Below, one piece after another: positions 18,238 through 41,979 of a DNA stretch of 64,000 nucleotides (position 1 is its first letter; every line of letters starts with the position of its first letter). This stretch comes from Minisyncoccota bacterium (GTDB lineage Bacteria > Patescibacteriota > Minisyncoccia > Moranbacterales > UBA1568). Made by a program: the position numbers and the translations under genes. The notes under the pieces are model-generated. The model made no database searches. It saw only the letters and a list, made by a program, of their open reading frames with translations, and was not told the DNA's origin. The DNA lies in assembly GCA_051306005.1 (NCBI GenBank), contig JBPPMJ010000003.1, positions 97,764-161,763 of the forward strand, in the 5' to 3' direction.

Positions 18238-18312
18238 TGGTGCTCTCAGCAGGAATCGAACCTGCATTGCTTCCTTCGGAGGGAAATGTCCTATCCATTG
18301 AACGATGAGAGC
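18238..18312 (-). tRNA. tRNA-Arg (anticodon CCG), CCA encoded
   Basis: Reverse complement GCTCTCATCGTTCAATGGATAGGACATTTCCCTCCGAAGGAAGCAATGCAGGTTCGATTCCTGCTGAGAGCACCA. Anticodon loop CTCCGAA. Confidence 0.8.
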
Positions 18313-18419
18313 AAATATAAAAATATTGCCTTTGCCTGAGTATTGATTGGATATGTTGAACCTGAAAATAAACGTTGATTTGCCCGCAGTCAGAAAATCG
18401 ACCGTGAGTGAAAAAAAGA

Positions 18420-18495
18420 TGGTGTCCTCGGCAGGAATCGAACCTGCGACCTTCTGGACCGCAACCAGACGCTCTATCCACTGAGCTACGGGGAC
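18420..18495 (-). tRNA. tRNA-Arg (anticodon reads GCG in DNA; ACG is the usual bacterial isoacceptor), CCA encoded
   Basis: Reverse complement GTCCCCGTAGCTCAGTGGATAGAGCGTCTGGTTGCGGTCCAGAAGGTCGCAGGTTCGATTCCTGCCGAGGACACCA. Anticodon loop TTGCGGT. One acceptor-stem mismatch. Confidence 0.65.
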
Positions 18496-18512
18496 CTCTT
18501 GTTGAGCATTTT

Positions 18513-18982
18513 TTAAATATGCAGGATTTTTTCCAACGTGTCAACCAATCTGGGCTCGTGTTTTTCTTCTGGAATAAAATCGTCCAAGAGGTCTCGCAAG
18601 TGTTCAATATCTTCCGCAATGACGGGGATGTGTACATAAGGGACCAATCTGCCCTGTGTTTCTATACTGAGGATGTTTTCAAAAGGGGGGTCGCGATAAA
18701 TAAAAAATGAGGCAATATTTTCAAATGCGTAAAATTCATCGCCCGCGATAATACCTTTTTCGGTTACAAAAAATGTCAGAGTACGGTACTCGCGGAGCAT
18801 AGAAAGATAGCCAACGACACCAATCAAGATAAAGGTAATCGCCATTAGCAGACTATTTGTATAGAGCGCATAACCAATAATCATGATCAAAAGAATCGTG
18901 ACGATAGTGCGTGAACGTGGACCGAGGTAGAGAGGTTCGTGCTCCAAGGCTTGCCAGCGGAATCGGACTTCACCATATGGCA
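18513..18982 (-). CDS. Hypothetical membrane protein
   Basis: Start placed at MPYGEVRFRWQ. Two TM helices followed by a soluble domain. The ORF track extension to 19172 overlaps tRNA-Ser on the opposite strand and is unlikely to be real. Confidence 0.4.
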
Positions 18983-19174
18983 TTGAGGCACTCTGCGTAG
19001 AATGATTGGAAGAGTGAGTAGGCATAGAAACCAAACAAGAGTATACCGATACTATACCATACTCTATGTGAATAGTAGAGGTAACGAGAGTTGACGAGGG
19101 CTCTGATATTGTGGCACAGTACAGAGGATCAGGTTTGAGACAAATACTATGCTTCAAGAATGGCATGATCAACC

Positions 19175-19261
19175 GGAGGCGTGTGTGAGTGGTTGAAACA
19201 GACAGTCTTGAAAACTGTTATACCCGGAAGGGTATCGAAGGTTCGAATCCTTCCGCCTCCG
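19175..19261 (+). tRNA. tRNA-Ser (anticodon TGA), long variable arm
   Basis: GGAGGCGTGTGTGAGTGGTTGAAACAGACAGTCTTGAAAACTGTTATACCCGGAAGGGTATCGAAGGTTCGAATCCTTCCGCCTCCG. Anticodon loop CTTGAAA. An AT-rich putative island begins immediately 3' of it. Confidence 0.85.
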
Positions 19262-19362
19262 CAGCTAGCTTGAAGTATCGAGAGACCCGAGAACCCTCTG
19301 TTTAAGCCAAAGAATAAATGGCAAAAAATAGAGAGTACACGGGACTCGAACTCAAGCACAAT

Positions 19363-19403: not shown

Positions 19404-20048
19404 CTATAGATCGCTTATTTTTTCTCCCATCGGAGTACTAAGCGTCCATTTCATTTGTTTGGAATCAAAGTCGAGCATCTTGTTTATGAGCCCGATCTCA
19501 TGAGATTTCCACTCCTCAGGATAAGGATATGCATACTTCCCTTCCTGAATAAGCTTGCGACAATATTCCATATTAAGACATTCGTCGATAGTTTTTACTT
19601 TACCATCAGTGTCTTTTACCTTTCCGTAATTTATATCCCAATCTTTGTATTGTTGGAATTTAGCATCATCATTAAAGATGTGATAATTCCCGTTAGGATC
19701 TTTTTTATGAATTTGTTTAGCGAGTTTGATAAGATCTTCTTGCGAAGTCTCTGCTGGTATCATGATGTTTTTCCATTCCTGACCAGACTTATCATAAGTC
19801 TCTAAGTTCTTATAAGCGATGACTGCTTCACTCTCCTGTGGCACAGGAACGCTTTGTTCTTGAGCAATCGGAGCTGGTTCTTTAGTGACATCATCTTTTT
19901 TCTTCTCATCGGAGCTTCCGCCCACAATAAGGATAAAAAAGAATATTATTAAGCCAATTGCCCATCGTTTTTTGATGCGCTTCTTATACCAAGCTTTCTT
20001 TTCTGGAAGTTTTTGAGCCTCTCCAGAGGGCTGAGAATTACTCTCCAT
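19404..20048 (-). CDS. Hypothetical membrane-anchored extracytoplasmic protein
   Basis: Start at MESNSQP. A basic stretch, then one TM helix (WAIGLIIFFFILIVGG), then a hydrophilic domain. No recognisable motifs. Confidence 0.4.
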   Translation of the reverse strand: MESNSQPSGEAQKLPEKKAWYKKRIKKRWAIGLIIFFFILIVGGSSDEKKKDDVTKEPAPIAQEQSVPVPQESEAVIAYKNLETYDKSGQEWKNIMIPAETSQEDLIKLAKQIHKKDPNGNYHIFNDDAKFQQYKDWDINYGKVKDTDGKVKTIDECLNMEYCRKLIQEGKYAYPYPEEWKSHEIGLINKMLDFDSKQMKWTLSTPMGEKISDL

Positions 20049-20291
20049 ATGTTTGACGTAGGATTTATTAACTAATTTTTTAAGGTACAAAAAAGGTCCC
20101 CCAACCAAAGCTATAACTCTTTCGAGCTACCCAATGTCCTTTCGGAACACTGACCTACGTCAATAAGTGCCGGTCGGGAGACCGTCTTTATGACGTAGGT
20201 GACTTTATTGCGCCATGCTCACATCGCTATGAGTTTAGGCTGGTTGTATCTGCATTATAGATTTTTAAAGGGCTTTTATCAACTGAATGCT

Positions 20292-21668
20292 TTATTTTAG
20301 GGTGGTTTCATACTCTTTTAGACTTAATGTTTTATTCTTTTTAATCACTAGGCGACTTTTTAGACTGCCTAGAAGTTCTCTCTTTTCAGCCATTTTTCCT
20401 TCTTTGAGAATGTATTTTGCATAGGCACGGATATCAAAAGGGGATTCCTCAGAAGTCTCTACTTTGCCGCTTAGCCGAAGCACTGATTTTTGAAAATGGT
20501 TATAGCGGTTAACCTCATCTTCAAATTGCCTTTTGAGACCAATTTCATTTATATCTATCTTATCGATCAGCTTTGTCATTTCCTCGATTAACAATTCTTC
20601 TCTCAGGTAGCCAAGTTTGCAACTATGATCTCGAGAGCGAGTACATCCGTAGTAAATATAAGTAGCGGTATTTCCATTCTTAAGTTTCTTGTACTTTTCA
20701 TCTGCGGTCACACCTGATCCGCAGAGACCACAAGTTATGAGCCGAGTGAAAGCAAACTCTTTTCCTTCTCTAATAATTCTTGCTCGTTTTAGTTGTTCTT
20801 GTACCAGATCAAAAAGTTCTTTAGAAATAAGGGGCTCATGTTTTCCTTGATACCAGTTACCGCTATTTCTAGGATATTCAAAGACTCCATAGTAAAAACT
20901 CGTTTGGAGTAAACGGTAGAGGTTACTTAGCGACATATGTTTATTACTCTTAGCTTTGAAGTTGAGATCAAACTTGAGCCAGTGGTATACTTTTCGTCCT
21001 GACCAATTTTCGTAAGCTACTTTTTCAAATATTTGTTTTACAATTGCAGATCGCATAGGGTCTATTTCTACGTGACTTTTACGGTCTGGCGTAATAGCGT
21101 TCAGATAACCAGTGGGAGCCATGGTTGGCCACAGTCCCATTTCACACCTCATTCGAAGTCCTCGTTTCACATTGATGCCTCGATTATCATTTTCTAGTTT
21201 TGCTTGCGATCCTAAGATCATCAGGAGGAATTTCTCGTTAGGGGAGTTGCTAAAGCTCTGGCCGTAGGTACGAATTTCATGCAGGAGCTGTTGATCCATG
21301 AGGTCTACTAGAGAACCTAAGTCACCAGCGTTTCTACTAAGTCTGTCTGGCGCCCATGTCAGAATAGCGTTGAAGCGACCTAAGCGAATATCATTTATAA
21401 GTTCGTTGTAAACTGGTCGTCCGCCTGAATTTTTAGCCGAGTGGCTTTCTCTCCGAATTTCTACAATCTCCAATCCATCCCTCTCGGCTATTTGAAGCAT
21501 CTCCTTAATCTGAGAGTCGATAGAAAGGACTTGCCGTTCCTCGGATTCCGTCGATTTTCGAGCGTAGAGGCAGTACTTCATCTGTAGGGGAGCTTCTATA
21601 TTCTTTGCCTCTGAAGCTGCCCGTAATTGCGTTATATGGTCGTTCATATCCCAATGAATGACAGACAT
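20292..21668 (-). CDS. Large serine recombinase (resolvase domain + recombinase domain + zinc ribbon)
   Basis: N-terminal resolvase catalytic region YARKSTESEERQVLSIDSQ (aligns with YxRVST...S-x2-Q; the catalytic Ser is in KST). A recombinase domain and a C-terminal Cys cluster (CGLCGS...C) follow. 458 aa. Confidence 0.85.
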   Translation of the reverse strand: MSVIHWDMNDHITQLRAASEAKNIEAPLQMKYCLYARKSTESEERQVLSIDSQIKEMLQIAERDGLEIVEIRRESHSAKNSGGRPVYNELINDIRLGRFNAILTWAPDRLSRNAGDLGSLVDLMDQQLLHEIRTYGQSFSNSPNEKFLLMILGSQAKLENDNRGINVKRGLRMRCEMGLWPTMAPTGYLNAITPDRKSHVEIDPMRSAIVKQIFEKVAYENWSGRKVYHWLKFDLNFKAKSNKHMSLSNLYRLLQTSFYYGVFEYPRNSGNWYQGKHEPLISKELFDLVQEQLKRARIIREGKEFAFTRLITCGLCGSGVTADEKYKKLKNGNTATYIYYGCTRSRDHSCKLGYLREELLIEEMTKLIDKIDINEIGLKRQFEDEVNRYNHFQKSVLRLSGKVETSEESPFDIRAYAKYILKEGKMAEKRELLGSLKSRLVIKKNKTLSLKEYETTLK

Positions 21669-21700
21669 CCCTAAACTAGTCTAGGCCCCTCCAAAAGCCC

Positions 21701-23158
21701 CTAAAATCCCTCTGGTTTCTCAGCAAAACCTCGGGAGCCTCTCTTATTGAGTTGTATGGCTTTCCCAGCCAATATGGAAAAAGCGTCTGCAAGATCATCG
21801 TGCTTTTCCTTTCCAAACCCCACGAGATTTTCTAGAAGATCCTCACAACCACTTTCTGGAAATTGAATTTTACCAGAAGTTACTAAATTACTTACAGACA
21901 TTAAACGGGCTCGTTTATCAGAAAATACTTGTACAGTTTCTGTACGATAGTAGTCTCTGTTTAATTGTTCCGCCGCAACACGTTGATAGCCAACGTCTTC
22001 AATGAGGATAATAACTTTTCCGTAGTGTTGAGTGGAATCGTGAAGCATTTTTATTGCAGAGAGTGTGTCTTCAAAATTTAATCTTTTCTCTATTGGATTC
22101 GGAAGTATGTATATTCTAAAGTCTTCTCCATACCCAGTAACTAATCCTACTACAAGAGCAGTAAAGTCAGCTGTTGATTTTTGGGAAATAGCTAAGTCAG
22201 TTCCAATGAGGACTCTTTTCCAGTGTTTGTCTGGTAGATTTTTATAATATTTAATTTGGTCATAGCTGAAGATTTGGTCGTCGTCAGGAATGATACGGAG
22301 GAGATATTCTCTTTGCCAAGCAATTTCGTTTCCAACTTTTTTTCTTTCTTTCTCAATCTCTGATTCATCGAGGTACTTCCCCTTCCAAAGAATCTCATCA
22401 TTTTCATTTAGTAGTGGATATTTCTTAAAAACTCCTTCACCAGATCCTTCTTCAATATCACTCTTTAAATGCATAAGGAGGGAATCTTCGTGAAGAAGAT
22501 TTCCGACTATCACCAGCTTGGTATTTTTATCACCAAGAGGAATAATTTCTCCTTTAAGCCAGTTGTATGTTTTTTGCCTCCCTTCTTTAGTTTTAGCTGA
22601 AGCCATATCTTCCACATCGTCACCGATAATCAGATCGGGACGGTGTTGTCCGTGACGCATCCCACGAATACTTTGTTCTGAAGAAGCAGCTGTAATACGG
22701 GCATTCATATTGGAAAAAACGAGTGAAGTTGATCCCCATTCGTCACTTTCTTCTTGAAATGGACCGAGGTCATTTTTAAGTAAGGTATTATTCTCGAGCT
22801 CTCTTTTTAAGTTAGTCATATGTTGCTTTGCCTGAGTTCTTGTTTGGCAAAGGATAACAACAAACTTCTTTTGCTGTTTACCAAGGATTGCCCAGATAGG
22901 ATAGGAAGTGGTAATGATAGTGGATTTACCAGATCCACGGAAAGCTACGATATAGAGGTTTTTGATAGTCTCGTCTTCCGTAAGGTTGAAAATTTCCCTT
23001 TGAAACTGAGCAGTTTCATACTTTACATAGTGAGCAAAGTAAAGGTGAAAAAACATAAAATGACTTTGCTGAGTAATAGCAATACGTACAGTTCTATCGG
23101 CAATCATTCTATCTATTACCTCATCAGGTATTTGTTTACTTATTTTTGACATCTCCAT
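21701..23158 (-). CDS. Phage terminase large subunit
   Basis: Walker A AFRGSGKST, ATPase coupling motifs, and a C-terminal RNase-H-like nuclease region (IGTDLAISQKSTADFTALVV...). Tightly followed (33 nt) by the recombinase gene. Confidence 0.75.
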   Translation of the reverse strand: MEMSKISKQIPDEVIDRMIADRTVRIAITQQSHFMFFHLYFAHYVKYETAQFQREIFNLTEDETIKNLYIVAFRGSGKSTIITTSYPIWAILGKQQKKFVVILCQTRTQAKQHMTNLKRELENNTLLKNDLGPFQEESDEWGSTSLVFSNMNARITAASSEQSIRGMRHGQHRPDLIIGDDVEDMASAKTKEGRQKTYNWLKGEIIPLGDKNTKLVIVGNLLHEDSLLMHLKSDIEEGSGEGVFKKYPLLNENDEILWKGKYLDESEIEKERKKVGNEIAWQREYLLRIIPDDDQIFSYDQIKYYKNLPDKHWKRVLIGTDLAISQKSTADFTALVVGLVTGYGEDFRIYILPNPIEKRLNFEDTLSAIKMLHDSTQHYGKVIILIEDVGYQRVAAEQLNRDYYRTETVQVFSDKRARLMSVSNLVTSGKIQFPESGCEDLLENLVGFGKEKHDDLADAFSILAGKAIQLNKRGSRGFAEKPEGF

Positions 23159-23534
23159 TATCGTTAATGGCCGCTAAACGTAAAGCTTCTCTCACCACTT
23201 CTTCTTGCTCGGGAGTGAGGTTTTCTTGTTTCTCTATTTTAGCTGTCACCTTTACTCGTTCCTTAAACTTCTCATGACGGTGATTGAGCCAGAATCTAAT
23301 AGCAGGAAAATTCTTTTCTCTGATGAGAGTGATAAGTTGGGATTCACCCATATCGTTAACCAGAGCCTCTCCTTCAGAGAGGGCTTCTTCAAGACTCTTC
23401 TTAAACTTCTTATCCTTATCTCGCCAGCGATATATGGTAGCTCGCGAAACACCTGATTTTTCACAAGCCACTTGGATAATGGGAACTCGTTTTAAGTTCT
23501 CAAGAAAGAGTTTTTTAGTGGCATGAGTTTTCAT
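23136..23534 (-). CDS. Terminase small subunit-like HTH DNA-binding protein
   Basis: N-terminal HTH (ACEKSGVSRATIYRWRDKD) and the position immediately upstream of, and overlapping, the terminase large subunit gene. Confidence 0.5.
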   Translation of the reverse strand: MKTHATKKLFLENLKRVPIIQVACEKSGVSRATIYRWRDKDKKFKKSLEEALSEGEALVNDMGESQLITLIREKNFPAIRFWLNHRHEKFKERVKVTAKIEKQENLTPEQEEVVREALRLAAINDNGDVKNK

Positions 23535-24304
23535 ATGCGTTTTGCTTTAATACCAAAAGTTTTCTCAAAACGATCAATGACAGTCTGGCAGTACTCGGGA
23601 TCAAGTTCTATGAGAACACATTTACGCTTAGTTTGTTCACAAGCCATCATAGTAGAACCTGAGCCACCAAAGCAGTCATAGACAACATCATCAATGGCAC
23701 TGCTATTTAGAATAAGTCTCCTTAGTAAACCAATTGGTTTTTGAGTAGGATGGAGAGCACTTTTGTTTGGCTTGGGGCAAAAAAGAATAGATTTATCTTT
23801 TCCCTTATGAAAGAGATGGGTTCCATACCAGCCAACGGCAATAAGCTCGTGCATCGGTAAGTAATCTTTCCGTCCGATGACAGGGTGATTTTTAATCCAG
23901 ATGACAAGTTGTGAAAATTTCAATCCCGCTTCTTTCATGCCATCCCGAAGAGCAAAGACCATAAGGTCAGAGTTAAAGATGTAGAAGGTATTCTTTTTGG
24001 AGAGGTAGGGCAGAAGGGGAGTGATCCAGTCTTTGGTAAATTTGGCATACTCAGACTCTGAAGTAATATCATCATTTAAGATATTCTTATTAACTTTCAC
24101 TTGGCTAAAGCCGACCTTACTTTCGGTGTAGAGTACGCCGTAAGGGACATCAGTTAATACGAGAGATACTCTTGTATCTTTGAGTGCCTTATATATCAAG
24201 TTTGTATCTCGAGCATCTCCACAAATAAGGATATGATCTCCAATCCGAAATTGATCACCGTACCTAATTAAGTTTTCTGGCTTTTTGGTTGGTAAGTTTT
24301 TCAT
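23531..24304 (-). CDS. DNA methyltransferase (N6-adenine/N4-cytosine, beta class)
   Basis: Motif IV variant TDVPYG precedes motif I CFGGSGST. This order is typical of beta-class amino-MTases. Confidence 0.75.
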   Translation of the reverse strand: MKNLPTKKPENLIRYGDQFRIGDHILICGDARDTNLIYKALKDTRVSLVLTDVPYGVLYTESKVGFSQVKVNKNILNDDITSESEYAKFTKDWITPLLPYLSKKNTFYIFNSDLMVFALRDGMKEAGLKFSQLVIWIKNHPVIGRKDYLPMHELIAVGWYGTHLFHKGKDKSILFCPKPNKSALHPTQKPIGLLRRLILNSSAIDDVVYDCFGGSGSTMMACEQTKRKCVLIELDPEYCQTVIDRFEKTFGIKAKRI

Positions 24305-25538
24305 AGCGGTTGATAATTAAATCACAAAATATAGGTTCTATTTCTACAAGGTAGACTTTGCGTTTAAGTTGCTCGCCAGCGATTAGGCTACTACCTGAAC
24401 CACCAAAGCCATCGAAGATAATGTCACCTGGCTTCGTACATCTGCGAATAGCTTTTTCATAGACGGTAGGTGGTTTCATAGTCGGGTGCTCGTATTCATT
24501 ACCCGCTAAACGTTTCACAAGCCAGATGTCTATAAGATCAAGAACATCATCAATAAGACGATTTCCCGTACTGACATCTTTATTCATAACTTCATTGAGA
24601 CTCTGTTCATTTTTAGAGAGATAAGGCTTACCTTTGATGCCGTAGACACAGGGTTCATAGCATTTACTAAACGCCACTCCCGGGGTAGGATTTTGACCAT
24701 TCTTAATCCATAAGCATACCCGTTTATTTTGAATACCAGATTCTCGATAGAGCTCTTGAAGAAGTCCAATGTAAACTTCGTCGCACCAGTAGAAAATATG
24801 GCAGGCATCATGAGAGATACTAAGAGCATTATCAAGGCTTTGCTTGAGAAACTTTTTGTACTCTGTATCAGTCTTTTGATCTTTGGTTTTACCACCGTAT
24901 GATTGTTTGCCGCCCACTCCCGAATCATATGAAAGCCCTATATTGTATATGGGATCAGAAAATATCATGTGAGCTTTTTCTTTTCCGAAGAGTTTTGATA
25001 TGACATCAGAATCTGTAGTATCTCCACAAATCAGTTTGTGTATACCAAGCTGATATATGTCACCAAGTTTTGTCTTCGGCTTTTTTATTTTTTCTAATTC
25101 TTTTTCAAGCCGAAAATCATCGTCCTCAGTTTCTAGGTATCCATCCCAGATTTGAGAAAGATCGTCTTCGTTGAATCCAATATCTAGAAGTAACCCGACA
25201 TCAAAAGATTTGAGTTTTTCAAAATCCCAATCTCCACCGACAGCATTGCTAGTGAGCATGTACTGTTCATACTCTTTTGAAGTGAGTTTGCGGTTAGGCA
25301 CTCGTACATCTATTTCTTCATCTCCTCGACCGAGAATTTGTAGTACCTTAATACGCTGATGACCAGCAATTATCTTACCATCTGTATCAATTGCGGGGAT
25401 CTCGACTAAATTGAACTTTTTGAGACTCTTCTTGAGGTCATTTACCTGCTTCTCGCTTATAGTGCGAGGATTCTTCTCGTAGGCGAGAAGGTTTTTTACG
25501 AAACGCTTTTCTGTCTGCCATACTAGTTTTTGAGACAT
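24264..25538 (-). CDS. ParB-like nuclease domain fused to DNA methyltransferase
   Basis: N-terminal ParB/Srx-like region (...IIAGHQRIKVLQ...), then MTase motif IV SDPIYN and motif I FDGFGGSGSS. ParB-MTase fusions are common phage orphan methylases. Confidence 0.75.
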   Translation of the reverse strand: MSQKLVWQTEKRFVKNLLAYEKNPRTISEKQVNDLKKSLKKFNLVEIPAIDTDGKIIAGHQRIKVLQILGRGDEEIDVRVPNRKLTSKEYEQYMLTSNAVGGDWDFEKLKSFDVGLLLDIGFNEDDLSQIWDGYLETEDDDFRLEKELEKIKKPKTKLGDIYQLGIHKLICGDTTDSDVISKLFGKEKAHMIFSDPIYNIGLSYDSGVGGKQSYGGKTKDQKTDTEYKKFLKQSLDNALSISHDACHIFYWCDEVYIGLLQELYRESGIQNKRVCLWIKNGQNPTPGVAFSKCYEPCVYGIKGKPYLSKNEQSLNEVMNKDVSTGNRLIDDVLDLIDIWLVKRLAGNEYEHPTMKPPTVYEKAIRRCTKPGDIIFDGFGGSGSSLIAGEQLKRKVYLVEIEPIFCDLIINRYEKLTNQKARKLN

Positions 25539-25626
25539 AATATTGTTTTTATTACTTATGCCTCAATTATGAAGTCAAAAAAATCGCCTTCATTTAGGCG
25601 ATTTGAATGCGTTTTATTAATACTAG

Positions 25627-26541
25627 CTATCTTTTCTTCACACGGTCCCGTATAGCTGAAAGTGATAAGTGTTCAAATTCGGGTCTATCTTTTATGTCTT
25701 TGAAGATTTTCATATCTAGCCTACCAAGCTTTTTGCTTTCATTATAAATTTTAAGTATTTTTTTAGTCTCATTAGCTTTTCTAGGGCTTTTTCTAACTCT
25801 CCCGACTGAATATGGATACTTCTTTTTGAAAATATTAAGAGGATCTTTTTCGATAAAATCAATCAATTCTTTTTTTGTAGTATCAATATCAAAGCTTATT
25901 GATTTTTTTGGTTTTTTACCGACAGGAACTCCATATTCATATTGGAAAGAGATTCCGGGATCTGCAGGAATAATTGTGTTAAAGAGTAAGAGTTCAACTA
26001 TGGCATCATAATATCTCCAAGGTAAATTCCATTTTTTCAATAGATAATGAGCCGCACCAAAAACGCTTTCGTTAACTATTTGTGAGGCGTACTTTAATTT
26101 AGCGGGAGTACTTTTTAGATTGGTGCCATCAGCCCAGCTAAAAAACCATCTTCTGTATTCAGGACTTATTGTCTGAGGAAAAATATTGGTATAGATCTTG
26201 TTTATCTCAGTTCTATTAGGAATCATGAAAGCACTATTTGTAGGACTTATTTTAAGAGCTGAACGAACTTCTTTTAGAAGTTTTTGATTATTAAATGAAT
26301 CGAGTAATTCAAGATGAATCATATCTTTATGCTCTCGATTAGCTTTTTTGTAAGAAGCAGTAGTATTGCGAATAACTATTGGAGGAATAAAAAACAGACG
26401 TCTCTCTAAATCTTTTAAATCATTCAGAGAGTAGTCTAACTTTAAGAAATGAGTCTCTTTTAGAGTCTTCCTTGAAATAGGAATGTATTGCTTCAATAGT
26501 GGAGATTTATTACATTCTCCAATAAATCTCTTGATATCCAT
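25627..26541 (-). CDS. Hypothetical protein (very AT-rich, Lys-rich)
   Basis: 304 aa ORF with no recognisable motif. Sits between the MTase/terminase operon and the Type III R-M operon. Confidence 0.4.
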   Translation of the reverse strand: MDIKRFIGECNKSPLLKQYIPISRKTLKETHFLKLDYSLNDLKDLERRLFFIPPIVIRNTTASYKKANREHKDMIHLELLDSFNNQKLLKEVRSALKISPTNSAFMIPNRTEINKIYTNIFPQTISPEYRRWFFSWADGTNLKSTPAKLKYASQIVNESVFGAAHYLLKKWNLPWRYYDAIVELLLFNTIIPADPGISFQYEYGVPVGKKPKKSISFDIDTTKKELIDFIEKDPLNIFKKKYPYSVGRVRKSPRKANETKKILKIYNESKKLGRLDMKIFKDIKDRPEFEHLSLSAIRDRVKKR

Positions 26542-26601: not shown

Positions 26602-26802
26602 ATGAAGAATCAACCAAAGAAAACTGAAGATTACCCAGATATTCTAACTCTTCAAGAAGCATGTGAGCTTCTAAACTGCCATCCAAATACTCTTCGTAAC
26701 TGGGATAACAAGGGTATTTTAAAGGCTATACGATTTGGGACAAGAAAAGACAGAAGGTATAAGAAAGAAGACGTTCTTAATGTTATCAATGAAAGTCATT
26801 AA
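26602..26802 (+). CDS. Excisionase/MerR-like HTH DNA-binding protein (putative R-M controller)
   Basis: 66 aa; LTLQEACELLNCHPNTLRNWDNKGIL is a classic MerR/excisionase-type HTH. Lies 3 nt upstream of mod. Confidence 0.6.
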   Translation: MKNQPKKTEDYPDILTLQEACELLNCHPNTLRNWDNKGILKAIRFGTRKDRRYKKEDVLNVINESH

Positions 26803-26805
26803 AGT

Positions 26806-28350
26806 ATGCCGACATTAAACTGGATTGGAAAAGAAGCGGTAGTAAATCATGATAAAGAGGTTCCTTTTAGACTGTTAAAAAAAGTGAAATCTGCTTCTGC
26901 GGGGAATAATTCTCAGAATCTTATTGTGCATGGAGACAATCTCGAAGCCCTAAAAGCACTTATGCCGTATTATGGTGGGAAAGTGAAGTGTGTCTATATT
27001 GATCCCCCGTATAATACTGGCAATGAAAGTTGGGTTTATAACGATAAAGTAAACTCACCTAAGATTAAAAAGTGGCTAGGAAAAGTAGTAGGAAAAGAGT
27101 TGGAGGATCTTTGTCGCCACGACAAGTGGCTTTGTATGATGTATCCAAGAATGAGTCTACTACGCGATCTGATGTCGGAAGATGGAGCTTTTTTTGTTTC
27201 TATTGACGATGATGAAGGGCAGTATTTGAAAGCAATGCTTGATGAAATATTTGGTAGAGAGAACTTTCTTACTACTATTATTTGGCATAAAAAACATACC
27301 TCGGCTAATGATGCGAGATTCTTCTCTGATAATCATGACTACATTCTTGTTTACACAAAAAATATTAATAAATTCAATATCAATTTATTACCTAGAGAAG
27401 CAATACATGATTCTCGTTATACTAATATAGATAATGATTCTCGCGGTCCTTGGGCTTCGGGTCCTTGTCATGTTAAAACTCCAAGTGCTAAAGACATTTA
27501 TGAGATAACTACACCAAGTGGTAGAAAAGTCTGGCCGCCTAAAAGTACTAGTTGGCGATTTTCTGAAAAGAAATTTGCTGAACTAGTGAAAGATAATCGT
27601 ATTTGGTTTGGTGAGAAGGGAGGTAACATTCCACGCTATAAAAGATTCTTAACAGATGTGCAGCAAGGCATTATTCCTAAGACAATGTGGCTAAGAGATG
27701 AAGTGGGAGATAATCAGGAAGCTAAATCAGAAGTAAAAGATTTAGTTCCGAATAGCCCATTTAATACTCCAAAGCCTACTCGTTTAATTAAGCGTATTTT
27801 ACAACTTTCGACCGATAAGGATTCTATTGTTTTTGATTCTTTCGCTGGCTCTGGGACTACTGGACAGGCAGTCCTGGATCTTAATAAAGAAGACGGAGGA
27901 AATAGAAAATTTGTCCTTGTTGAAATGGAAGATTCTGTAGCGAAAGATATTACAGCTGAAAGAATTAAACGAGCAATTAAAAAGTTCGATTATCAAGACG
28001 GATTTGAGTATTGTGAGTTAAGTGAACCTCTCTTTGATGAGAATGGGCAAATTGAAGAATCCTGTGATTTTAATCAATTTGCAACCTATCTTTATTTTAC
28101 CGAAACACAGACTAATATCGATAAAAATGAGATAAACGGAAATTTCATCGGAAAACACAATGAAAGAGAATATCACCTAATATACAAAGAGAAAGGGGAA
28201 AATGTATTGAGCAAACCCTTTCTAAAGAAACTGCCAAAGAATAATACAATTAAGGTTGTGTATGCAGATAGATGCACTTTAGATGAGGAAGTATTAGATA
28301 AATACAATATTATTTTTAAGCAGATCCCTTACGAAGTTAAAGTTTATTAA
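26806..28350 (+). CDS. mod: Type III restriction-modification methyltransferase (Mod), N6-adenine
   Basis: Motif IV DPPY (VYIDPPYNTGNE) near the N-terminus, motif I FDSFAGSGTTG near the C-terminus, and a central variable target-recognition region. Confidence 0.85.
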   Translation: MPTLNWIGKEAVVNHDKEVPFRLLKKVKSASAGNNSQNLIVHGDNLEALKALMPYYGGKVKCVYIDPPYNTGNESWVYNDKVNSPKIKKWLGKVVGKELEDLCRHDKWLCMMYPRMSLLRDLMSEDGAFFVSIDDDEGQYLKAMLDEIFGRENFLTTIIWHKKHTSANDARFFSDNHDYILVYTKNINKFNINLLPREAIHDSRYTNIDNDSRGPWASGPCHVKTPSAKDIYEITTPSGRKVWPPKSTSWRFSEKKFAELVKDNRIWFGEKGGNIPRYKRFLTDVQQGIIPKTMWLRDEVGDNQEAKSEVKDLVPNSPFNTPKPTRLIKRILQLSTDKDSIVFDSFAGSGTTGQAVLDLNKEDGGNRKFVLVEMEDSVAKDITAERIKRAIKKFDYQDGFEYCELSEPLFDENGQIEESCDFNQFATYLYFTETQTNIDKNEINGNFIGKHNEREYHLIYKEKGENVLSKPFLKKLPKNNTIKVVYADRCTLDEEVLDKYNIIFKQIPYEVKVY

Positions 28351-28354
28351 ATCT

Positions 28355-30628
28355 ATGGAACTTAAGAAATATCAGCAGTCAGCTCTAGATACTCTCAAAG
28401 AATACTTACAAGAGTATGAAAAAGTAGGTACCAAGTATGCTTTTATGGGTATTACGGGTCGTCCCTATATTGCTGATTTTTTCAGCGAGATTCCTTTTCT
28501 GTGTGTCAAAATTCCTACAGGAGGAGGAAAGACTCTCGTAGGATGTCACGCTGTCAGCGAAATAATGCGCTCTGTTCTTAAATATAAGATGGAACGAGGT
28601 GTCGTAATATGGTTCGTGCCCTCAGAAGCAATTAAGACCCAGACACTCAAAAAATTTAAAGATAGAAACGATTGGCACCGAAAAGTTTTGGATGAGGAAT
28701 TTGATAATAATATCAGGATCTTTTCTAACGAAGAGGCGCTACGTATTAGAAAAGAAGATGTAAAAGACAACCTGTGTATTATTATCTCTAGTCTTGAGGC
28801 GTTTCGAAAAGAGAAGAAGCTACAAAATAAATATAAAGTGTACCAGGAGAATGGTGCGCTTATAAGTCACTTTGAAAATCTTGAAGATCCTGATGGTCTT
28901 GAGAAAGACGAAGAGGGAACGATTATAAATTCCTTGGCTAATGTTGTTCGTATAAGTGAGCCGCTTATCGTTATCGATGAAGGACATAAGACCAAAACAG
29001 AACTCTCTATTAATTTTATTAAGGATCTTAATCCTAGTTTTATTATTGAATATACAGCGACTCCTCGAGACGGAAGCAATATTCTCGTAGATATCTCAGC
29101 TAGCGAACTTAAAGCTGAGGAAATGGTAAAAATTCCTATCGTTCTTGAGAGTTCATCGCAGTGGCAAAATTCTATTGCGAATGGTATTGATAAACGTAAT
29201 GAACTTGAGAAAGAAGGAAAGAAAAATAAAAGTGAATATATTCGCCCTATTGCTTTGATTCAAGCTCAGCCTAACAGTAAAACACAGGCTAATGTCACTG
29301 TTGAAGAAATTAAAGAATACTTACTTAGTTCAAAAATATCTGAAGACGAGATCGCTATCAAAACTTCTTTTAGGAATGATTTAGATGGGGTAGATCTCTT
29401 TAGTAAGAAATGTAAGATTCGTTACATTATTACTGTTAGTGCGTTGGCTGAAGGTTGGGATTGTTCTTTTGCCTATGTCCTTATTTCGGTTGCCAATGTT
29501 GGTGCAAAGATCGCTGTGGAGCAAATCATCGGACGTATTATTCGTATGCCCTATGCAAAGCGTAAGGTAAATGAAGCTTTGAATCGGTCATATATATTTG
29601 CTTCTGCAAAAAACTTTAACGAAGCGGCAACTAATATTATCTCCGGTCTTCAGAAAAACGGGTATAGCAAGCTGGATTTGATTGGTGCTTCTTCAGATGG
29701 AGAAACTGCTAAAGATCCGAAAGTAGTTAAACGTGTAGTAAATAAAGACTTTTTTGTTCCACTCGTGACTCTAGATAATGAAAAGATTACCTTCGAGGAA
29801 CTTATTGGAGAAGAATTCAAACTTGCTAAGCAGAACGCTGAGTTTGAATTCAAGACCCATTATGATAATGATGGGCGTGCACTTATTGATATCGAAGATG
29901 ATAATCAATGGCATAAAGGAAAACAGCAGGTATTGAATCTGATCTATAAAGATAAAAATCTTTCAAAAAATGAGCTAATCCAGTGGCTAGATAAGAGACT
30001 TCGCTTTACCATTTTAGGAAAACCAGACAAGGTGAAATTTATTGATAAAGCACTTGAACATCAATTAAAAACATCTTCTCTAGCCTCACTCTCAGTAAAT
30101 CGTTATATTCTGCTTAATAGATTGGGTGAAGTCATCCATAGTGTGCTTGAAGAATATGCTAAAAAGCAATTCGACCAATTAATGACAAAGAAGAAAATTT
30201 CGGTGAAGACTTTTGAAAGTTTTCCAGAGATCATTACTCTTAAGCAGGAAATTCCACAAGAATTCAATCGTAATTATTACGAGAAAATAGATAAGCTTAA
30301 TAAGGAAGAATTAAGCTTTGTAGAACGGCTTGACCCTGATACTTTACCGAATATTAAATTTTGGATACGTAGTCGAGAGAAGCAAGACCCATTCTTTATT
30401 CAAGGCTGGAGAAAGAACAAGTTTTATCCTGACTTTGTGGTGTTTACAAAAAAAGGAAATATTATTGCTCTTGAGTGGAAAGGGGAGGATAGAGTTAGTA
30501 ATGAGGATACAGCATACAAAGTCTCTATTGGTGATATGTGGTCCAAGCTTGGTAAAGGAAAACTTCATTTTTTCTTAGTTCACAATGGAAATGTTGAGGA
30601 GGTTTTGAATAGCCTTAAAGATTTATAG
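28355..30628 (+). CDS. res: Type III restriction enzyme (Res), SF2 helicase-nuclease
   Basis: Walker A KIPTGGGKT, DEGH box (VIDEGHK), helicase C-terminal motifs, and a C-terminal PD-(D/E)xK nuclease motif (YPDFVVF...IALEWKG). Confidence 0.85.
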   Translation: MELKKYQQSALDTLKEYLQEYEKVGTKYAFMGITGRPYIADFFSEIPFLCVKIPTGGGKTLVGCHAVSEIMRSVLKYKMERGVVIWFVPSEAIKTQTLKKFKDRNDWHRKVLDEEFDNNIRIFSNEEALRIRKEDVKDNLCIIISSLEAFRKEKKLQNKYKVYQENGALISHFENLEDPDGLEKDEEGTIINSLANVVRISEPLIVIDEGHKTKTELSINFIKDLNPSFIIEYTATPRDGSNILVDISASELKAEEMVKIPIVLESSSQWQNSIANGIDKRNELEKEGKKNKSEYIRPIALIQAQPNSKTQANVTVEEIKEYLLSSKISEDEIAIKTSFRNDLDGVDLFSKKCKIRYIITVSALAEGWDCSFAYVLISVANVGAKIAVEQIIGRIIRMPYAKRKVNEALNRSYIFASAKNFNEAATNIISGLQKNGYSKLDLIGASSDGETAKDPKVVKRVVNKDFFVPLVTLDNEKITFEELIGEEFKLAKQNAEFEFKTHYDNDGRALIDIEDDNQWHKGKQQVLNLIYKDKNLSKNELIQWLDKRLRFTILGKPDKVKFIDKALEHQLKTSSLASLSVNRYILLNRLGEVIHSVLEEYAKKQFDQLMTKKKISVKTFESFPEIITLKQEIPQEFNRNYYEKIDKLNKEELSFVERLDPDTLPNIKFWIRSREKQDPFFIQGWRKNKFYPDFVVFTKKGNIIALEWKGEDRVSNEDTAYKVSIGDMWSKLGKGKLHFFLVHNGNVEEVLNSLKDL

Positions 30629-33118: not shown

Positions 33119-34193
33119 GTTTCAAAAAAGAAAGAGTCGTTCAATTGAAGATCCTTTTTTAAGTTACATAAAGGGATTTTCTGGATTGGATAATCTAGTG
33201 AGAGATATTACAGATCTGCATAAGGAAACATTCTATATTAGAAATTCTTTATTTCCTTTGCAGAGATCCTCTAGGAGTGTTGCATCTAATACGGAAGCAA
33301 CTTTCTATGTTGAGTGTGAGGATTCTGTAGTAAAAAATGATTTATCTAGCTACCTATTTGATAAGTACTCTAGGTATCGAGATAGTCTTTATGGAAATGG
33401 AGATGATCTGGGAAGTTTTTTTGGAACCTATGCTTCTGAGCTTATGATAAAAGGCATATTTTTTTCAGAAGTCGTATGGGATAGTATTGACATTGACGGA
33501 AGAACTTATATTTTACCAGTTGACTTTAGTTATATTCATCCCTCAACGATGGGATTCGTAAGAAAGAACAGTAAGATAGTCGGCTATAAGCAAGTTTATA
33601 GTATTATAACTAGCTTCTTAAGAAGAAAAGATTATTCATATAAAGATTTAATAAAGAATAGAAAAGTTACATTTTCCACAGATGAAATATTCTACGGCTG
33701 TTACCCGTTTTCTTTGCACTCTCCCACCAGGGAAAGTAAGAAACTTCTAAAGGCTGCTAACCGTTTTATGGAGTTCTCCCTAGATACTGCTACGGCAGGA
33801 GCCTACCCAGAGAACCATCAATTAAATATTGAAAGAGCTAAGTATAAATCAGTTAAATTGGAGAAGGTTAAGGCAACAGTAGCGAGAAGCAAAATAAGAA
33901 AAATATTTAACTATATACCTGAGGCAGGTGAGCTAAAGATTACAGAGTATTATGATATTTTTACTGTTATTAGATACAGAAAGTTTCTGAATAAGATGCG
34001 AGACTATATGATTAGTGAATTCAATAAACAAGTAATTAGTGAAATCTTAAGAAAGAATAATCTTTCAGTAAAGGCGACTCTAAAATACAAGGGTTTTCTT
34101 AATAATATTGAAATCAATAAAGCTTTCGATGCTTACAAGAACGGAAGTTTATCAAGCCAAGATCTTATAAAGGAAATAGTAGAGAAGCCTTAG
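33102..34193 (+). CDS. Uncharacterised 363 aa protein
   Basis: Overlaps the upstream gene by 17 nt (translational coupling). No recognisable motif. Confidence 0.45.
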   Translation: MKSLTKFQKRKSRSIEDPFLSYIKGFSGLDNLVRDITDLHKETFYIRNSLFPLQRSSRSVASNTEATFYVECEDSVVKNDLSSYLFDKYSRYRDSLYGNGDDLGSFFGTYASELMIKGIFFSEVVWDSIDIDGRTYILPVDFSYIHPSTMGFVRKNSKIVGYKQVYSIITSFLRRKDYSYKDLIKNRKVTFSTDEIFYGCYPFSLHSPTRESKKLLKAANRFMEFSLDTATAGAYPENHQLNIERAKYKSVKLEKVKATVARSKIRKIFNYIPEAGELKITEYYDIFTVIRYRKFLNKMRDYMISEFNKQVISEILRKNNLSVKATLKYKGFLNNIEINKAFDAYKNGSLSSQDLIKEIVEKP

Positions 34194-34198
34194 TTTCT

Positions 34199-36269: not shown

Positions 36270-36319
36270 AGAAAGAAAAGCAATGTATCTAATTTCTTTA
36301 TGGCTAGTATAACATGCTT

Positions 36320-36348
36320 TTGACAATACCCTAAGGGGGGTATATAAT
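36320..36348 (+). promoter_or_regulatory. Sigma70-type promoter with an embedded CsoR operator
   Basis: TTGACA-17 nt-TATAAT. The 17 nt spacer ATACCCTAAGGGGGGTA(T) is a GC palindrome closely resembling the Bacillus subtilis CsoR operator ATACCCTACGGGGGTAT. It lies 25 nt upstream of the csoR ATG. Confidence 0.6.
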
Positions 36349-36372
36349 AAAAGTACTTTATACAAACAATCT

Positions 36373-36636: not shown

Positions 36637-36654
36637 ATTTTTTAATATAATGTT

Positions 36655-37113: not shown

Positions 37114-37121
37114 GAGTTAGT

Positions 37122-39425: not shown

Positions 39426-39427
39426 GT

Positions 39428-40435: not shown

Positions 40436-40439
40436 ACAT

Positions 40440-40865: not shown

Positions 40866-40882
40866 GATTATCTAGAGAATAT

Positions 40883-41422: not shown

Positions 41423-41472
41423 GAGTAATCAATGGAAGAAAGGACTTTAAAGCTTTATGGTATTATAAAGAC

Positions 41473-41889: not shown

Positions 41890-41979
41890 GAACCACTAGG
41901 ATGTTGTTTTGATAAACAATGTCATTTTATCGTGGAGCGTATATAAAACGGAGGGGTAAGTAGCTATGAGAAAAAGTAT

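Follow-up and report, generated by a model that had tools for sequence, protein, structure and literature searches.

The window, a stretch of 64,000 nucleotides of Moranbacterium DNA, harbors a minus-strand operon at positions 20292–25538. It comprises, in transcriptional order, genes for a ParB-methyltransferase fusion protein, a second DNA methyltransferase (MTase), the small (TerS) and large (TerL) terminase subunits and a large serine recombinase. The ORF listing shows each of the five genes to be intact. The tight coupling described in the initial annotation was reproduced, with overlaps of 41, 4 and 23 nt, whereas the gap between the TerL and recombinase genes measures 32 nt instead of the 33 nt given previously. 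Scanning the operon for internal terminators yielded none. The operon and its surroundings comprise the following features:

19175–19262, plus strand: tRNA-Ser(UGA), found by ARAGORN and Rfam
19284–19297: candidate att core, copy 1, GACCCGAGAACCCT, part of a 14-nt exact repeat, 22 nt 3' of the tRNA-Ser gene
19404–20045, minus strand: membrane-anchored protein of 213 aa, variable gene downstream of the LOOT RNA; no Pfam, PHROG or PADLOC match
20081–20241, minus strand: LOOT RNA (Rfam RF03000) with a 3' extension ending in a U-run; Rfam and covariance model
20254–20282, minus strand: predicted sigma-70-type promoter of the LOOT RNA, TTGATA-17-TATAAT, 11 of 12 positions
20292–21668, minus strand: large serine recombinase (integrase), 458 aa; PF00239, PF07508, PF13408; phrog_95 integrase, 6e-59
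21701–23158, minus strand: TerL, 485 aa; phrog_38, 1e-78; Terminase_6C
23136–23534, minus strand: TerS-like helix-turn-helix (HTH) protein, 132 aa; phrog_4044, 4e-12, and five other TerS PHROGs
23531–24304, minus strand: orphan N6/N4 DNA methyltransferase, 257 aa; PF01555, 1e-29; phrog_498, 5e-63
24264–25538, minus strand: fusion of a ParB-N domain and a DNA methyltransferase, 424 aa; phrog_498, 6e-84; PF01555, 3e-24
25581–25604, minus strand: terminator-like hairpin separating orf304 from the five-gene operon, just upstream of the latter
25627–26541, minus strand: orf304 (cluster c65), variable first gene of the rightward unit; no profile matches
26602–26802, plus strand: HTH_17/MerR-type DNA-binding protein, 66 aa; PF12728, 2.7e-11
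26806–30628, plus strand: type III restriction-modification (RM) cargo, Mod of 514 aa and Res of 757 aa; PADLOC MTase_III, 1e-194, and REase_III, 7e-87
30659–35299, plus strand: three cargo genes encoding 819, 363 and 366 aa; no Pfam, PHROG or PADLOC family
35325–48798: M23 peptidase and copper/heavy-metal and thiol-redox cluster; Pfam
48893–48906: candidate att core, copy 2, exact 14-nt repeat of 19284–19297

Products of the operon and probable extent of the island

Within the ParB-MTase, residues 8–149 match the ParB-like phrog_620 (3e-23). The second, orphan MTase is an optional part of the core operon, being carried by approximately one third of the family members as deduced from gene maps. 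TerS features an N-terminal HTH and also matches the Sf6_terminase and HTH profiles. For TerL, the ATPase domain was recognized by GpA_ATPase and Terminase_6N matches and contains the Walker A motif GSGKST (residues 75–80) and the Walker B motif DLIIGDDVED (residues 175–184), both unchanged across 21 aligned sequences. Its nuclease domain matches Terminase_6C (2e-6), and D321, E387, D455 and D458 are invariant in the same alignment. Moreover, the RNase H-like nuclease was modelled with pLDDT values above 90 and matches the terminase nucleases of G20c, HCMV and HSV, while the top 24 matches of TerL in a Foldseek search of the PDB are all viral large terminases. Judged by motifs and predicted fold, TerL appears to be catalytically intact. 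Profile, motif and fold evidence thus spoke against the possibility, raised in the initial annotation, that the gene encodes a different P-loop ATPase or nuclease.

The recombinase possesses a catalytic domain (PF00239, 8e-20, residues 34–178) with the YARKS catalytic motif, followed C-terminally by PF07508 (2e-13) and PF13408 (Zn_ribbon_recom, 2e-7). SPbeta YokA, aligned over residues 35–391, and the TP901-1 integrase were found among its PDB matches.

The island resides at the 3' side of the tRNA-Ser gene in its Moranbacterium host. Since the 3' end of tRNA-Ser(UGA) faces the island, this gene serves the island subfamily as its chromosomal anchor or target. The order recombinase, LOOT RNA, variable gene and tRNA-Ser is common to the relatives L003, L004, L007, L009, L011 and L072, and homology between L009 and L011 extends 27 nt into tRNA-Ser genes with different anticodons. 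Copy 1 of the candidate att repeat (BLAST E-value of the 14-nt repeat, 0.023) overlaps a palindromic motif, GAGACCYYGGGTCTC, kept 20–35 nt 3' of tRNA-Ser in six relatives. Copy 2 lies in the intergenic gap after the last gene of the metal cluster and is the probable far end of the island, which probably spans 19.29–48.9 kb, i.e., 29.6 kb. One relative was found to have 2.1 kb in place of 38.7 kb of the window; a search for an empty insertion site recovered none.

Between recombinase and tRNA-Ser, the LOOT RNA at 20114–20241 scored 49.8 bits with the Rfam model (gathering score, 46.4; model positions 1–121) and 77.5 bits with a purpose-built covariance model, R1; its fold z-score is -3.2. Its predicted promoter is the best promoter match within 19–27 kb, and relatives have retained this sequence upstream of LOOT. 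Two elements are not covered by the Rfam model: the 3' extension, and a repeat located at the ribosome-binding region downstream. In relatives, the place of the 213-aa gene is occupied by genes for various surface or secreted proteins, among them DUF4352, SNase and bPH proteins. The orphan LOOT RNA belongs to these islands, adjoining the recombinase gene and lying upstream of the variable surface/secreted protein gene. The motif was described previously (Rfam RF03000; Weinberg et al. 2017), and our literature search found no publication giving it a genetic context or function.

On the other side of the core, the HTH_17 gene is divergent from the five-gene operon and heads the cargo operon. It occupies the place of a LexA/S24-like repressor elsewhere and of an HTH_17 gene in L002; a divergent LexA/S24-like repressor was found in 36 of 72 loci, the other half, including the window, being without it. 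Its gene position suggests that the divergent regulator may act as master repressor of the island operon. At the position of orf304, other loci encode unrelated proteins of 120–300 aa (clusters c7, c10, c15, c22 and c49), and orf304 itself might encode an activator or else a recombination directionality factor.

The type III RM cargo shows a G+C content of 0.33–0.36, compared with approximately 0.42 for the host. Homologues of the 366-aa protein (c12), together with proteins of approximately 800 aa at the matching position, recur beside other islands. The metal/redox cluster encodes DUF305, two P-type ATPases, a DsbD-HMA protein, cupredoxins and DsbA-like proteins. Its genes are also present inside the att-bounded islands L047 and L032 and beside at least ten other islands, and one relative is devoid of the whole 35325–48798 region, which probably represents island cargo including the M23 gene. 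Across the family, the cargo flanking the core on either side is swappable and includes CBASS, Thoeris-like TIR and caspase-like systems, RM types I and III and copper resistance.

Recurrence of the operon and related phages

When the five-gene arrangement was sought in related genomes, the same layout was found to recur in 94 loci from Patescibacteria MAGs. Recurring in so many independent loci, the arrangement is far from a chance event. Relatives of TerL number more than 3,600 at 90% clustering, or 444 clusters at 50% identity (E ≤ 1e-30), and are encoded by at least 269 species-representative genomes, nearly all labelled Patescibacteria. An MTase gene precedes terL in 80 of 82 loci. As called by a crude ORF picker, a same-strand serine recombinase gene lies downstream of terL in 46 of 62 loci, directly adjoining it in 31 of 82, while none was seen within 8 kb downstream in 16 of the 62 loci having that sequence. 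The five genes represent a conserved 'mobility and packaging' operon of an integrative island family specific to Patescibacteria (CPR).

Genes for TerL, TerS, MTase, recombinase and repressor showed dN/dS values of 0.007–0.13, and the core genes are thus under strong purifying selection. Cores from different species share 86–94% nucleotide identity, with unalignable flanks. One MAG contains two copies that differ in their repressors and in their defence cassettes (L053/L054), and two modules are located on one 39-kb contig (L094/L095). Furthermore, between L001 and L005 the MTase and recombinase genes differ by dN values of 0.007 and 0.009, respectively, and terL by 0.345; in these otherwise near-identical islands, the terminase was swapped. 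Four complete islands of 13.6–18.3 kb are bounded by 17–24 bp repeats of a tRNA 3' end and encode no structural proteins. Neither an excised circle nor a particle-associated copy turned up: all 23 full-length contigs checked lack a terminal overlap. Scanning of the core and recurrent genes revealed no replication module, neither primase nor Rep nor helicase; several small core proteins are unannotated.

The initial annotation had also noted the lack of recognisable structural genes near the operon, which was borne out by profile searches for portal, capsid and protease remnants. Capsid, portal, tail or other structural genes were found in none of the ORFs within 19.4–57 kb (Pfam, PHROGs and PADLOC), nor within ±10 kb of the core in the 94 related loci, and portal or head genes adjoin terL neither in the window nor in those loci. 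The sole phage-like match within 19.4–57 kb originates from the generic M23 peptidase domain of the gene at 35325–36455, which matches endolysin and tape-measure PHROGs through this domain alone. Since ORFs pack the region with gaps of less than 300 nt, there is no room for pseudogene remnants.

The TerL of the window is 40–42% identical over its full length (1e-110) to those of three phage contigs of 35–41 kb (L116, L111 and L185). On these contigs, terL is followed by genes for a portal-MuF protein, a protease or scaffold, an HK97-type capsid protein and tail proteins. Furthermore, the N-terminal 225 aa of the window's ParB-MTase are 51% identical to an L185 protein encoded just upstream of TerS/TerL. 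No similarity was found between the island TerS and the protein upstream of TerL in related phages, as would be expected if TerS redirects packaging specificity. The nearest phage TerL proteins are 40–46% identical, and portals appear only in these phage relatives. The portal family linked to related TerL proteins comprises 180 proteins, encoded on phage-sized contigs and not on host contigs.

Proposed lifestyle of the islands and alternative explanations

Based on genome interpretation, we consider the odds to lie slightly in favour of these islands being undescribed, capsid-less, terminase-complete elements resembling phage satellites. Conservation, functionality, mobility, a phage-type switch, the phage link and satellite-typical cargo argue for this reading. 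Since a complete packaging enzyme is encoded in the absence of capsid genes, the islands probably spread by hijacking the heads of helper phages, carrying defence and metal-resistance genes along with them. Of the origins considered in the initial annotation, a satellite or an undescribed recombinase-terminase element was thus supported, at the level of anatomy and comparative genomics. To the picture given there, the analysis added the Patescibacteria host, the tRNA-Ser target, LOOT next to the recombinase, the divergent regulator with its defence cargo and a likely extent of 29.6 kb that takes in the copper-resistance cluster.

In the resting state, the repressor, an SOS-cleavable LexA/S24-type protein in half of the family and the small HTH_17 protein in the window, would silence the core operon, while the cargo operon headed by the repressor gene would be expressed. 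DNA damage or infection by a helper phage would switch on the core operon. The serine recombinase would then excise the island, probably together with a directionality factor, e.g., the product of the variable first gene, and the MTases would methylate the island DNA, enabling it to survive restriction in the next cell. TerS is expected to recognize an island-specific pac site, and TerL may dock on the helper portal so that procapsids made by the helper are filled with island DNA. After injection into a new cell, the recombinase would integrate the island at a tRNA gene. Such an island would bring its own complete terminase and steal only capsids and tails.

Several results weaken the satellite-like reading. 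A helper phage has been identified for no host, and the island TerL, distant as it is from the nearest phage homologues, can only be presumed to fit a helper portal. The window's island, possibly 29.6 kb long, is almost as large as a complete phage genome, so that any small-capsid logic loses force. The missing replication module and excised circle, the half of the family lacking a LexA-like repressor, the loci in which no recombinase was seen and the reliance on a crude ORF picker for gene calls in the loci likewise count against it.

Alternatively, the islands could be ordinary integrative defence islands acting as packaging-interference or defence devices, in which TerS and TerL, instead of serving island transfer, sabotage an infecting phage by portal occupation or concatemer cutting and the MTases protect self DNA. 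Defence systems crowd the core from both sides, a switch of SOS or phage type appears to control the operon, neither replication module nor circular form was found, and terminase-targeting prophage systems and motor-manipulating satellites are described in the literature. However, intact TerS and TerL co-transcribed with an integrase and anti-restriction-type MTases represent a toolkit for DNA export and not just for blocking, an island-specific TerS implies recognition of a specific DNA site, and near-identical cores in different species need a transfer route. Blocking and transfer could, moreover, coexist, as in PICIs. Defence as the sole function is considered unlikely.

Packaging in situ, in the manner of lateral transduction or gene transfer agents (GTA), is judged to be quite unlikely. 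According to this explanation, the terminase starts from the integrated island and mobilises adjacent cargo and host DNA without excision, the capsids coming either from a resident prophage or from structural genes located in another part of the genome. The cargo hot spots directly downstream of TerL and the recombinase, along the packaging direction, the lack of detected replication genes and the frequent breaking of contigs at islands would fit. On the other hand, tRNA-repeat boundaries, the integrase and transfer of discrete cores across species point to a defined, excising unit. The absence of structural genes around the related loci and in the window, together with the small portal family confined to phage-sized contigs, also argues against it.

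Repurposing of TerL and TerS for a task unrelated to capsids, e.g., to process island DNA or resolve it while the island is excised, replicated or taken up, appears very unlikely. It would account for the missing portal partner in cis and for a CPR terminase clade whose size greatly exceeds that of the sampled phage relatives, whereas TerL has kept its ATPase motor motifs as well as its nuclease site, which, along with full-length similarity to phage TerL, fits unchanged packaging; we know of no precedent for such repurposing. A degraded prophage, in which the five genes remained after deletion of structural and lysis modules, had also been proposed and was rejected as hardly credible: the ParB-MTase/TerL module is indeed homologous to the late-operon start of real phages and the cut falls exactly after TerL, but the genes are intact and under strong selection (dN/dS of about 0.01–0.13), pseudogenes and structural remnants are absent, the identical truncated, portal-less layout is conserved across the 94 loci with TerL relatives in at least 269 species, cores moved recently between species, and complete att-bounded members are free of structural genes.

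The satellite-like reading can be extended further. The islands may be the first phage satellites of CPR/Patescibacteria and form a new 'terminase-complete, capsid-less' class, equipped with a serine integrase, a ParB-MTase and its own TerS and TerL, that parasitises the procapsids of an L185-like siphophage lineage, acts as the main shuttle of defence and metal-resistance genes and uses LOOT as riboregulator of a variable surface or exclusion protein. This extended proposal is tentative, with somewhat less than an even chance of being correct. If true, the islands would be the main carrier of defence and metal-resistance genes among the tiny CPR genomes.

Comparison with known satellites, islands and phages

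PICIs, e.g., SaPIs, resemble the islands in being integrative elements of approximately 10–18 kb that have the integrase gene at one end, use a divergent repressor/operon switch, redirect packaging through a TerS of their own and often bring defence cargo, while lacking capsid, tail and lysis genes. Correspondingly, an integrase with att-bounded units of 13.6–18.3 kb, a divergent regulator and packaging-redirection genes without structural genes were found in the family. In contrast, PICIs encode a tyrosine integrase and a primase/Rep replication module, whereas the islands feature a large serine recombinase, ParB-MTase core genes and a Patescibacteria host, and no replication module was found in them. 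To our knowledge, all classical satellites have such a module. Classical PICIs use the phage TerL and the islands carry their own; PICIs are helper-induced, whereas the islands are known here from their genes. The PICI comparison drawn in the initial annotation therefore holds for the logic of the element and fails for membership, in view of the serine recombinase, the replication module not found and the presence of TerL plus TerS.

Among described satellites, only cf-PICIs possess TerS together with TerL, and their TerL clades, like that of the islands, are old and well separated from phage homologues. The gene set of cf-PICIs extends to capsid, protease, portal, head connectors and HNH, so that only tails have to be stolen, whereas the islands have none of these genes and would need to steal complete procapsids plus tails.

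Islands with serine recombinases that target tRNA or tmRNA genes are also known, such as the ssrA islands of Dehalococcoides. These share with the present family a serine recombinase at the end, insertion at the 3' end of a small-RNA gene and swappable adaptive cargo; we know of no terminase or phage-type switch in them. The temperate siphophage lineage of the metagenomic contigs L185, L116 and L111 shares with the islands a homologous ParB-domain protein followed by TerL in the same order. In these phages, portal, capsid and tail genes come after TerL, a place taken in the islands by cargo and the serine recombinase.

Core operon and gene content of the window

A minus-strand operon of five genes, namely a ParB-methyltransferase fusion, a second methyltransferase (MTase), TerS, TerL and a large serine recombinase, had been reported in the initial annotation, and this observation was confirmed by ORF calling as well as Pfam and PHROG profiles. 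The tight coupling of the genes was reproduced regarding the overlaps of 41, 4 and 23 nt; the gap between terL and the recombinase gene, previously given as 33 nt, was found to be 32 nt. A terminator scan revealed no terminators between the core genes.

Located features of the core operon and the adjacent cargo in the window
20292–21668, minus strand: large serine recombinase (Resolvase, Recombinase and Zn-ribbon domains; phrog_95, 6e-59)
21701–23158, minus strand: large terminase TerL (phrog_38, 1e-78; Terminase_6C)
23136–23534, minus strand: TerS-like HTH protein (phrog_4044, 4e-12)
23531–24304, minus strand: second MTase, N6/N4 type (Pfam and PHROGs)
24264–25538, minus strand: ParB-N/DNA-methyltransferase fusion (phrog_498, 6e-84; ParB-like phrog_620, 3e-23, residues 8–149)
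25581–25604: terminator-like hairpin ahead of the first core gene
30659–35299, plus strand: three cargo proteins of 819, 363 and 366 aa (low G+C, downstream of a type III restriction-modification system)
36655–48798: copper/heavy-metal and thiol-redox cluster (DUF305, two P-type ATPases, DsbD-HMA, cupredoxins, DsbA-like proteins)

The possibility that the terL gene encodes another P-loop ATPase or nuclease was ruled out by motifs, profile matches and fold. In an alignment of 21 relatives, the Walker A (GSGKST) and Walker B (DLIIGDDVED) motifs and the acidic nuclease residues D321, E387, D455 and D458 were invariant, and PDB matches of the TerL profile were terminases only. Moreover, when the TerL AlphaFold model (mean pLDDT 68; nuclease domain >90) was compared with the PDB by Foldseek, the 24 top-ranking structures were all viral large terminases (PhiV-1, D6E, HK97, G20c, HCMV, HSV). 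The recombinase contains the catalytic motif YARKS and is alignable to the SPbeta and TP901-1 integrases.

Every ORF located between 19.4 and 57 kb was screened for structural genes. Neither capsid, portal and tail genes nor degraded remnants of structural genes were detected by the profile scan in this region, as originally claimed for the surroundings of the operon, and ORF packing is too dense for pseudogenes to go unnoticed. Phage matches of an M23 peptidase arose through the generic M23 domain only. The region also encodes a 213-aa membrane protein, the unannotated 304-aa orf304, ApbE, AhpC, an SDR protein and a PIF1 helicase. Divergently from orf304 and the operon, a 66-aa HTH_17/MerR protein is encoded by the first gene of an operon comprising a type III restriction-modification (RM) system (PADLOC 1e-194 and 7e-87) and cargo genes. 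The 819-, 363- and 366-aa cargo proteins had no match in PHROG, Pfam or PADLOC and may represent an undescribed defence system. Homologues of the 366-aa protein (cluster c12) and similarly placed proteins of approximately 800 aa recur beside other islands. Likewise, clusters homologous to the metal/redox genes of the window reside inside or beside many islands of the family, and metal resistance therefore looks like regular cargo.

Distribution, conservation and mobility of the island family

Among the candidates scored, more than 3,600 TerL relatives were found; clustering at 50% identity (E<=1e-30) resulted in 444 TerL clusters, and with a single genome scanned for each species a TerL relative was identified in 269 genomes. 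Island carriers include the closed genomes OY970175.1 and OY970181.1. The best 120 relatives listed showed 56–82% identity, and the few source names among them referred mostly to Moranbacteria, Parcubacteria and Zambryskibacteria MAGs. Several TerL representatives (P0121–P0126 and others) are approximately 700 aa long with an N- or C-terminal extension of 220–290 aa and could be fusions or mis-called genes.

To describe the gene layout, ORFs were called and clustered in 104 loci. The five-gene arrangement, which had been proposed as a search target in related genomes, recurs as the layout of a family, and comparison of these loci establishes its anatomy and conservation at the sequence level. 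The usual order begins with defence cargo on the opposite strand and a DUF2188 protein, followed by a divergent LexA_DNA_bind/Peptidase_S24 repressor of approximately 215 aa. Then a variable gene of 120–300 aa, the ParB-MTase, an optional MTase, TerS and TerL follow, and the order ends with zero to five cargo genes, the serine recombinase and further cargo. An MTase upstream of TerL was present in 80 of 82 loci and the LexA-like repressor in 36 of 72; in the window, the 66-aa HTH_17/MerR gene takes its place, an arrangement shared by the related locus L002. The recombinase directly follows TerL in 31/82 loci and is encoded on the same strand anywhere downstream in 46/62. No portal or capsid genes were found in the gene-mapped island loci, and neither cluster c8 nor the variable first genes (c7, c10, c15, c22, c49, orf304) had matches in PHROG, Pfam or PADLOC. 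Recurrent cargo comprises defence functions (CBASS with SMODS and Cap15, ThsB-type TIR, a caspase-like protein, type I and III RM, AbiEii) as well as DUF2726 proteins, P-type ATPases and thioredoxins. In five loci (L029, L040, L094, L095, L030), a second, larger serine recombinase (537–596 aa) was observed at the end opposite the 440-aa one, upstream of the core; it could be a second integrase, an invertase or part of an adjacent island. The locus belongs to a family of integrative islands in Patescibacteria that carry a terminase; this family is large and apparently undescribed.

Purifying selection acts on the genes for the repressor, the MTase, both terminase subunits and the recombinase, with dN/dS values of 0.007–0.13 in 15 pairs. 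Furthermore, cores of approximately 6 kb share 86–94% nucleotide identity across different species-representative genomes with unalignable flanks, demonstrating interspecies transfer at the level of sequence comparison. Two islands (L053, L054) with different repressors and defence cassettes were assigned to one MAG (CAZIZK01), for which mis-binning is possible, and two modules (L094, L095) share one 39-kb IMG/VR contig. Within these pairs, packaging cores are near-identical, LexA-like repressors differ (dN ~0.7) and the cassettes are caspase/TIR-like versus CBASS. Such pairing is as expected of hetero-immune elements. Between loci L001 and L005, dN amounts to 0.345 for TerL and 0.098 for TerS, compared with 0.007 for the MTase and 0.009 for the recombinase, and the loci are 93–99.7% identical elsewhere; the terminase module has been exchanged between them, which is phage-like mosaicism.

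Four islands are tRNA-bounded units flanked by direct repeats of 17–24 bp that correspond to the 3' end of a tRNA gene. These islands carry metal-resistance cargo and lack structural genes.

Islands bounded by tRNA 3'-end repeats
L047: 17.2 kb, tRNA-Gln
L032: 18.3 kb, tRNA-Trp
L069: 13.6 kb, tRNA-Ser
L079: 16.6 kb, tRNA-Ser

The end of L053/L054 homology, approximately 45 nt before the recombinase stop codon, had been considered as an island end. Since att-bounded islands hold cargo beyond the recombinase, this position was reinterpreted as the boundary of a cargo hot-spot. Circular forms were not present among 23 contigs checked end to end.

Concerning the window itself, RecG relatives of 65–73% identity place the host in the Moranbacteria. 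In its subfamily, the recombinase is followed by a LOOT RNA (Rfam RF03000), a small membrane-protein gene and tRNA-Ser, and homology between the related loci L009 and L011 extends 27 nt into tRNA-Ser genes of different anticodons. No displaced 3' fragment of tRNA-Ser was found in the window as a far attachment (att) site, and repeats over 18–38 kb were at chance level only. An exact 14-nt repeat, GACCCGAGAACCCT, occurs at 19284–19297 and 48893–48906 (BLAST E 0.023). The first copy coincides with a palindromic motif conserved 20–35 nt 3' of tRNA-Ser in six relatives, and the second lies in the gap beyond the last gene of the copper cluster. This repeat just 3' of the tRNA is the only att candidate in the window, and based on the positions of its two copies an island of 29.6 kb (19.29 to 48.9 kb) is proposed. 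The predicted attB reads ...GTATCGAGA-GACCCGAGAACCCT-AATTTACTAT... and the predicted attP ...CAAAAGCCT-GACCCGAGAACCCT-CTGTTTAAGCC...; exact matches to the empty or occupied attB junction were not found in JGI metagenomes. In the related locus L184, tRNA-Ser is located 2.1 kb from homologues of window genes 57993–61074, compared with 38.7 kb in the window, and this shorter interval independently supports the proposed extent. The aligned regions downstream of tRNA-Ser in L183 and L184 show a protein-level divergence of 72% and are too diverged to inform. The block at 18238–19262 (two tRNA-Arg genes, a 219-aa membrane protein gene and tRNA-Ser) recurs in relatives from the Moranbacteria, but L183 has it in the opposite orientation with respect to recG, and the region downstream of tRNA-Ser varies among relatives.

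LOOT RNA beside the recombinase

The orphan motif LOOT was detected at 20114–20241 (49.8 bits versus a gathering score of 46.4). It lies 50 nt past the stop codon of the recombinase gene and has its own strong promoter in front, the best of the region. A covariance model built from 28 copies yielded 47 matches in 44 island loci and no match in the phage loci searched. LOOT always adjoins the recombinase gene, either 40–90 nt after its stop codon or approximately 160 nt divergent from its start, and usually lies 20–60 nt upstream of a variable membrane- or secreted-protein gene (DUF4352, SNase, bPH). LOOT is a component of these islands.

LOOT-associated features of the window
20081–20282, minus strand: LOOT with promoter (also in 44 related loci, e.g., L053:12428–12574, L042:13943–14088)
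20046–20062 versus 20192–20212, minus strand: hairpin-arm repeat (also in L055, L086, L040, L002, L075 and others)
~20085–20105 and 20168–20185, minus strand: apical-hairpin/3'-tail pairing (alignment A2)

For 25 of 44 copies, a repeat of the variable hairpin's 5' arm (minimum 12 nt, no more than one mismatch) stands directly before the ATG of the downstream gene, compared with 0/44 for the control sequence upstream of each LOOT, and this repeat co-varies between islands. The ribosome-binding region could consequently be masked by the 3' hairpin arm; in the minimum-energy fold, the repeat copy at that region is unpaired. Moreover, the apical hairpin is complementary, with covariation, to the 3' tail preceding the U-run outside the Rfam model (mean run 11.4 nt versus 6.5 in shuffles) and may fold with it into a pseudoknot or into an alternative helix resembling a terminator. 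These features suggest that LOOT acts as a cis-acting riboregulator.

Phage relatives, possible function and relation to known satellites

In plain BLAST searches, TerL identity to GenBank phages reached at most approximately 28%, to Mu-like phages, and informative phage relatives surfaced only by a profile-guided IMG/VR scan. The portal-less layout was kept by matches of at least 42% identity in the first IMG/VR scan and, in the second, where TerL was at least 49% identical to an island TerL. In three phage contigs (L116, L111, L115), TerL is 42% identical to that of the window over its full length (1e-110) and is followed by a portal with MuF (phrog_2662, 1e-123), a protease and a major head protein (phrog_10, 1e-59). 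The portal family of the phage relatives is small and comprises 180 proteins on contigs of 35–41 kb. On the 35-kb phage contig L185, a ParB-domain protein (51% identical to residues 1–225 of the ParB-MTase, 2e-67) precedes a 186-aa protein, TerL (40% identity, 9e-119), portal, scaffold, an HK97-type capsid protein and tail genes. Homology of both ParB and TerL thus relates the island module to the start of the late operon of a real phage and establishes its phage ancestry. Between the island TerS and the small protein encoded ahead of TerL in the phages, there is no relationship. As judged from these alignments, the island module corresponds to the start of a late operon cut exactly after TerL and provided with its own DNA-recognition subunit.

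The family is most likely helper-dependent and of the phage-satellite kind. The earlier alternatives of a satellite or an undescribed recombinase-terminase element are both supported by anatomy and comparative genomics, with helper dependence being the most likely reading. In such a life cycle, SOS or a helper phage would derepress the operon, the serine recombinase would excise the island and its DNA would be methylated. TerS would then choose the island pac site, TerL would fill helper procapsids and, on reaching a new cell, the island would integrate at a tRNA gene. Counting against this mechanism are the lack of a known helper, of circles and of a replication module, which was not detected in the islands, as well as the distant phage TerL and the large size of the window island. 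Packaging interference as a means of defence, considered beside the recurrent defence cargo, is an unlikely alternative to helper-dependent transfer. In-situ or lateral packaging into capsids encoded elsewhere is considered improbable. Beside the invariant ATPase and nuclease residues, a non-packaging role for TerL appears very doubtful. A degraded prophage, also among the initial options, was rejected as scarcely credible in a region free of structural remnants.

Patescibacteria account for a large share of bacterial diversity, possess genomes of approximately 1 Mb and few of their mobile elements are known; gene exchange among them is an open question. One family in hundreds of species, equipped with its own packaging motor and a cargo of copper-resistance and defence genes (CBASS, Thoeris-like, RM), would be a major channel through which genes move and immunity turns over in this phylum. 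Moreover, the islands are a source of many large serine integrases that are compact and target tRNA genes, and the orphan LOOT RNA gains a testable genetic context. In the literature searched, neither this island nor a CPR satellite was described, and a 2025 preprint referred to the existence of CPR-virus satellites as unknown.

Classical PICIs combine their own or a phage TerS with the phage TerL, and cf-PICIs encode TerL plus capsid, protease, portal and connectors. In contrast to PICIs, the islands described here carry both TerS and TerL together with a serine integrase and have no detectable replication module; unlike cf-PICIs, they possess TerS and TerL without any head gene. Due to the missing head genes, the serine integrase and the undetected replication module, membership of either family fails, and of the comparison initially suggested the shared logic holds. 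The island family would accordingly bridge PICIs (TerS only) and cf-PICIs (terminase plus capsid).
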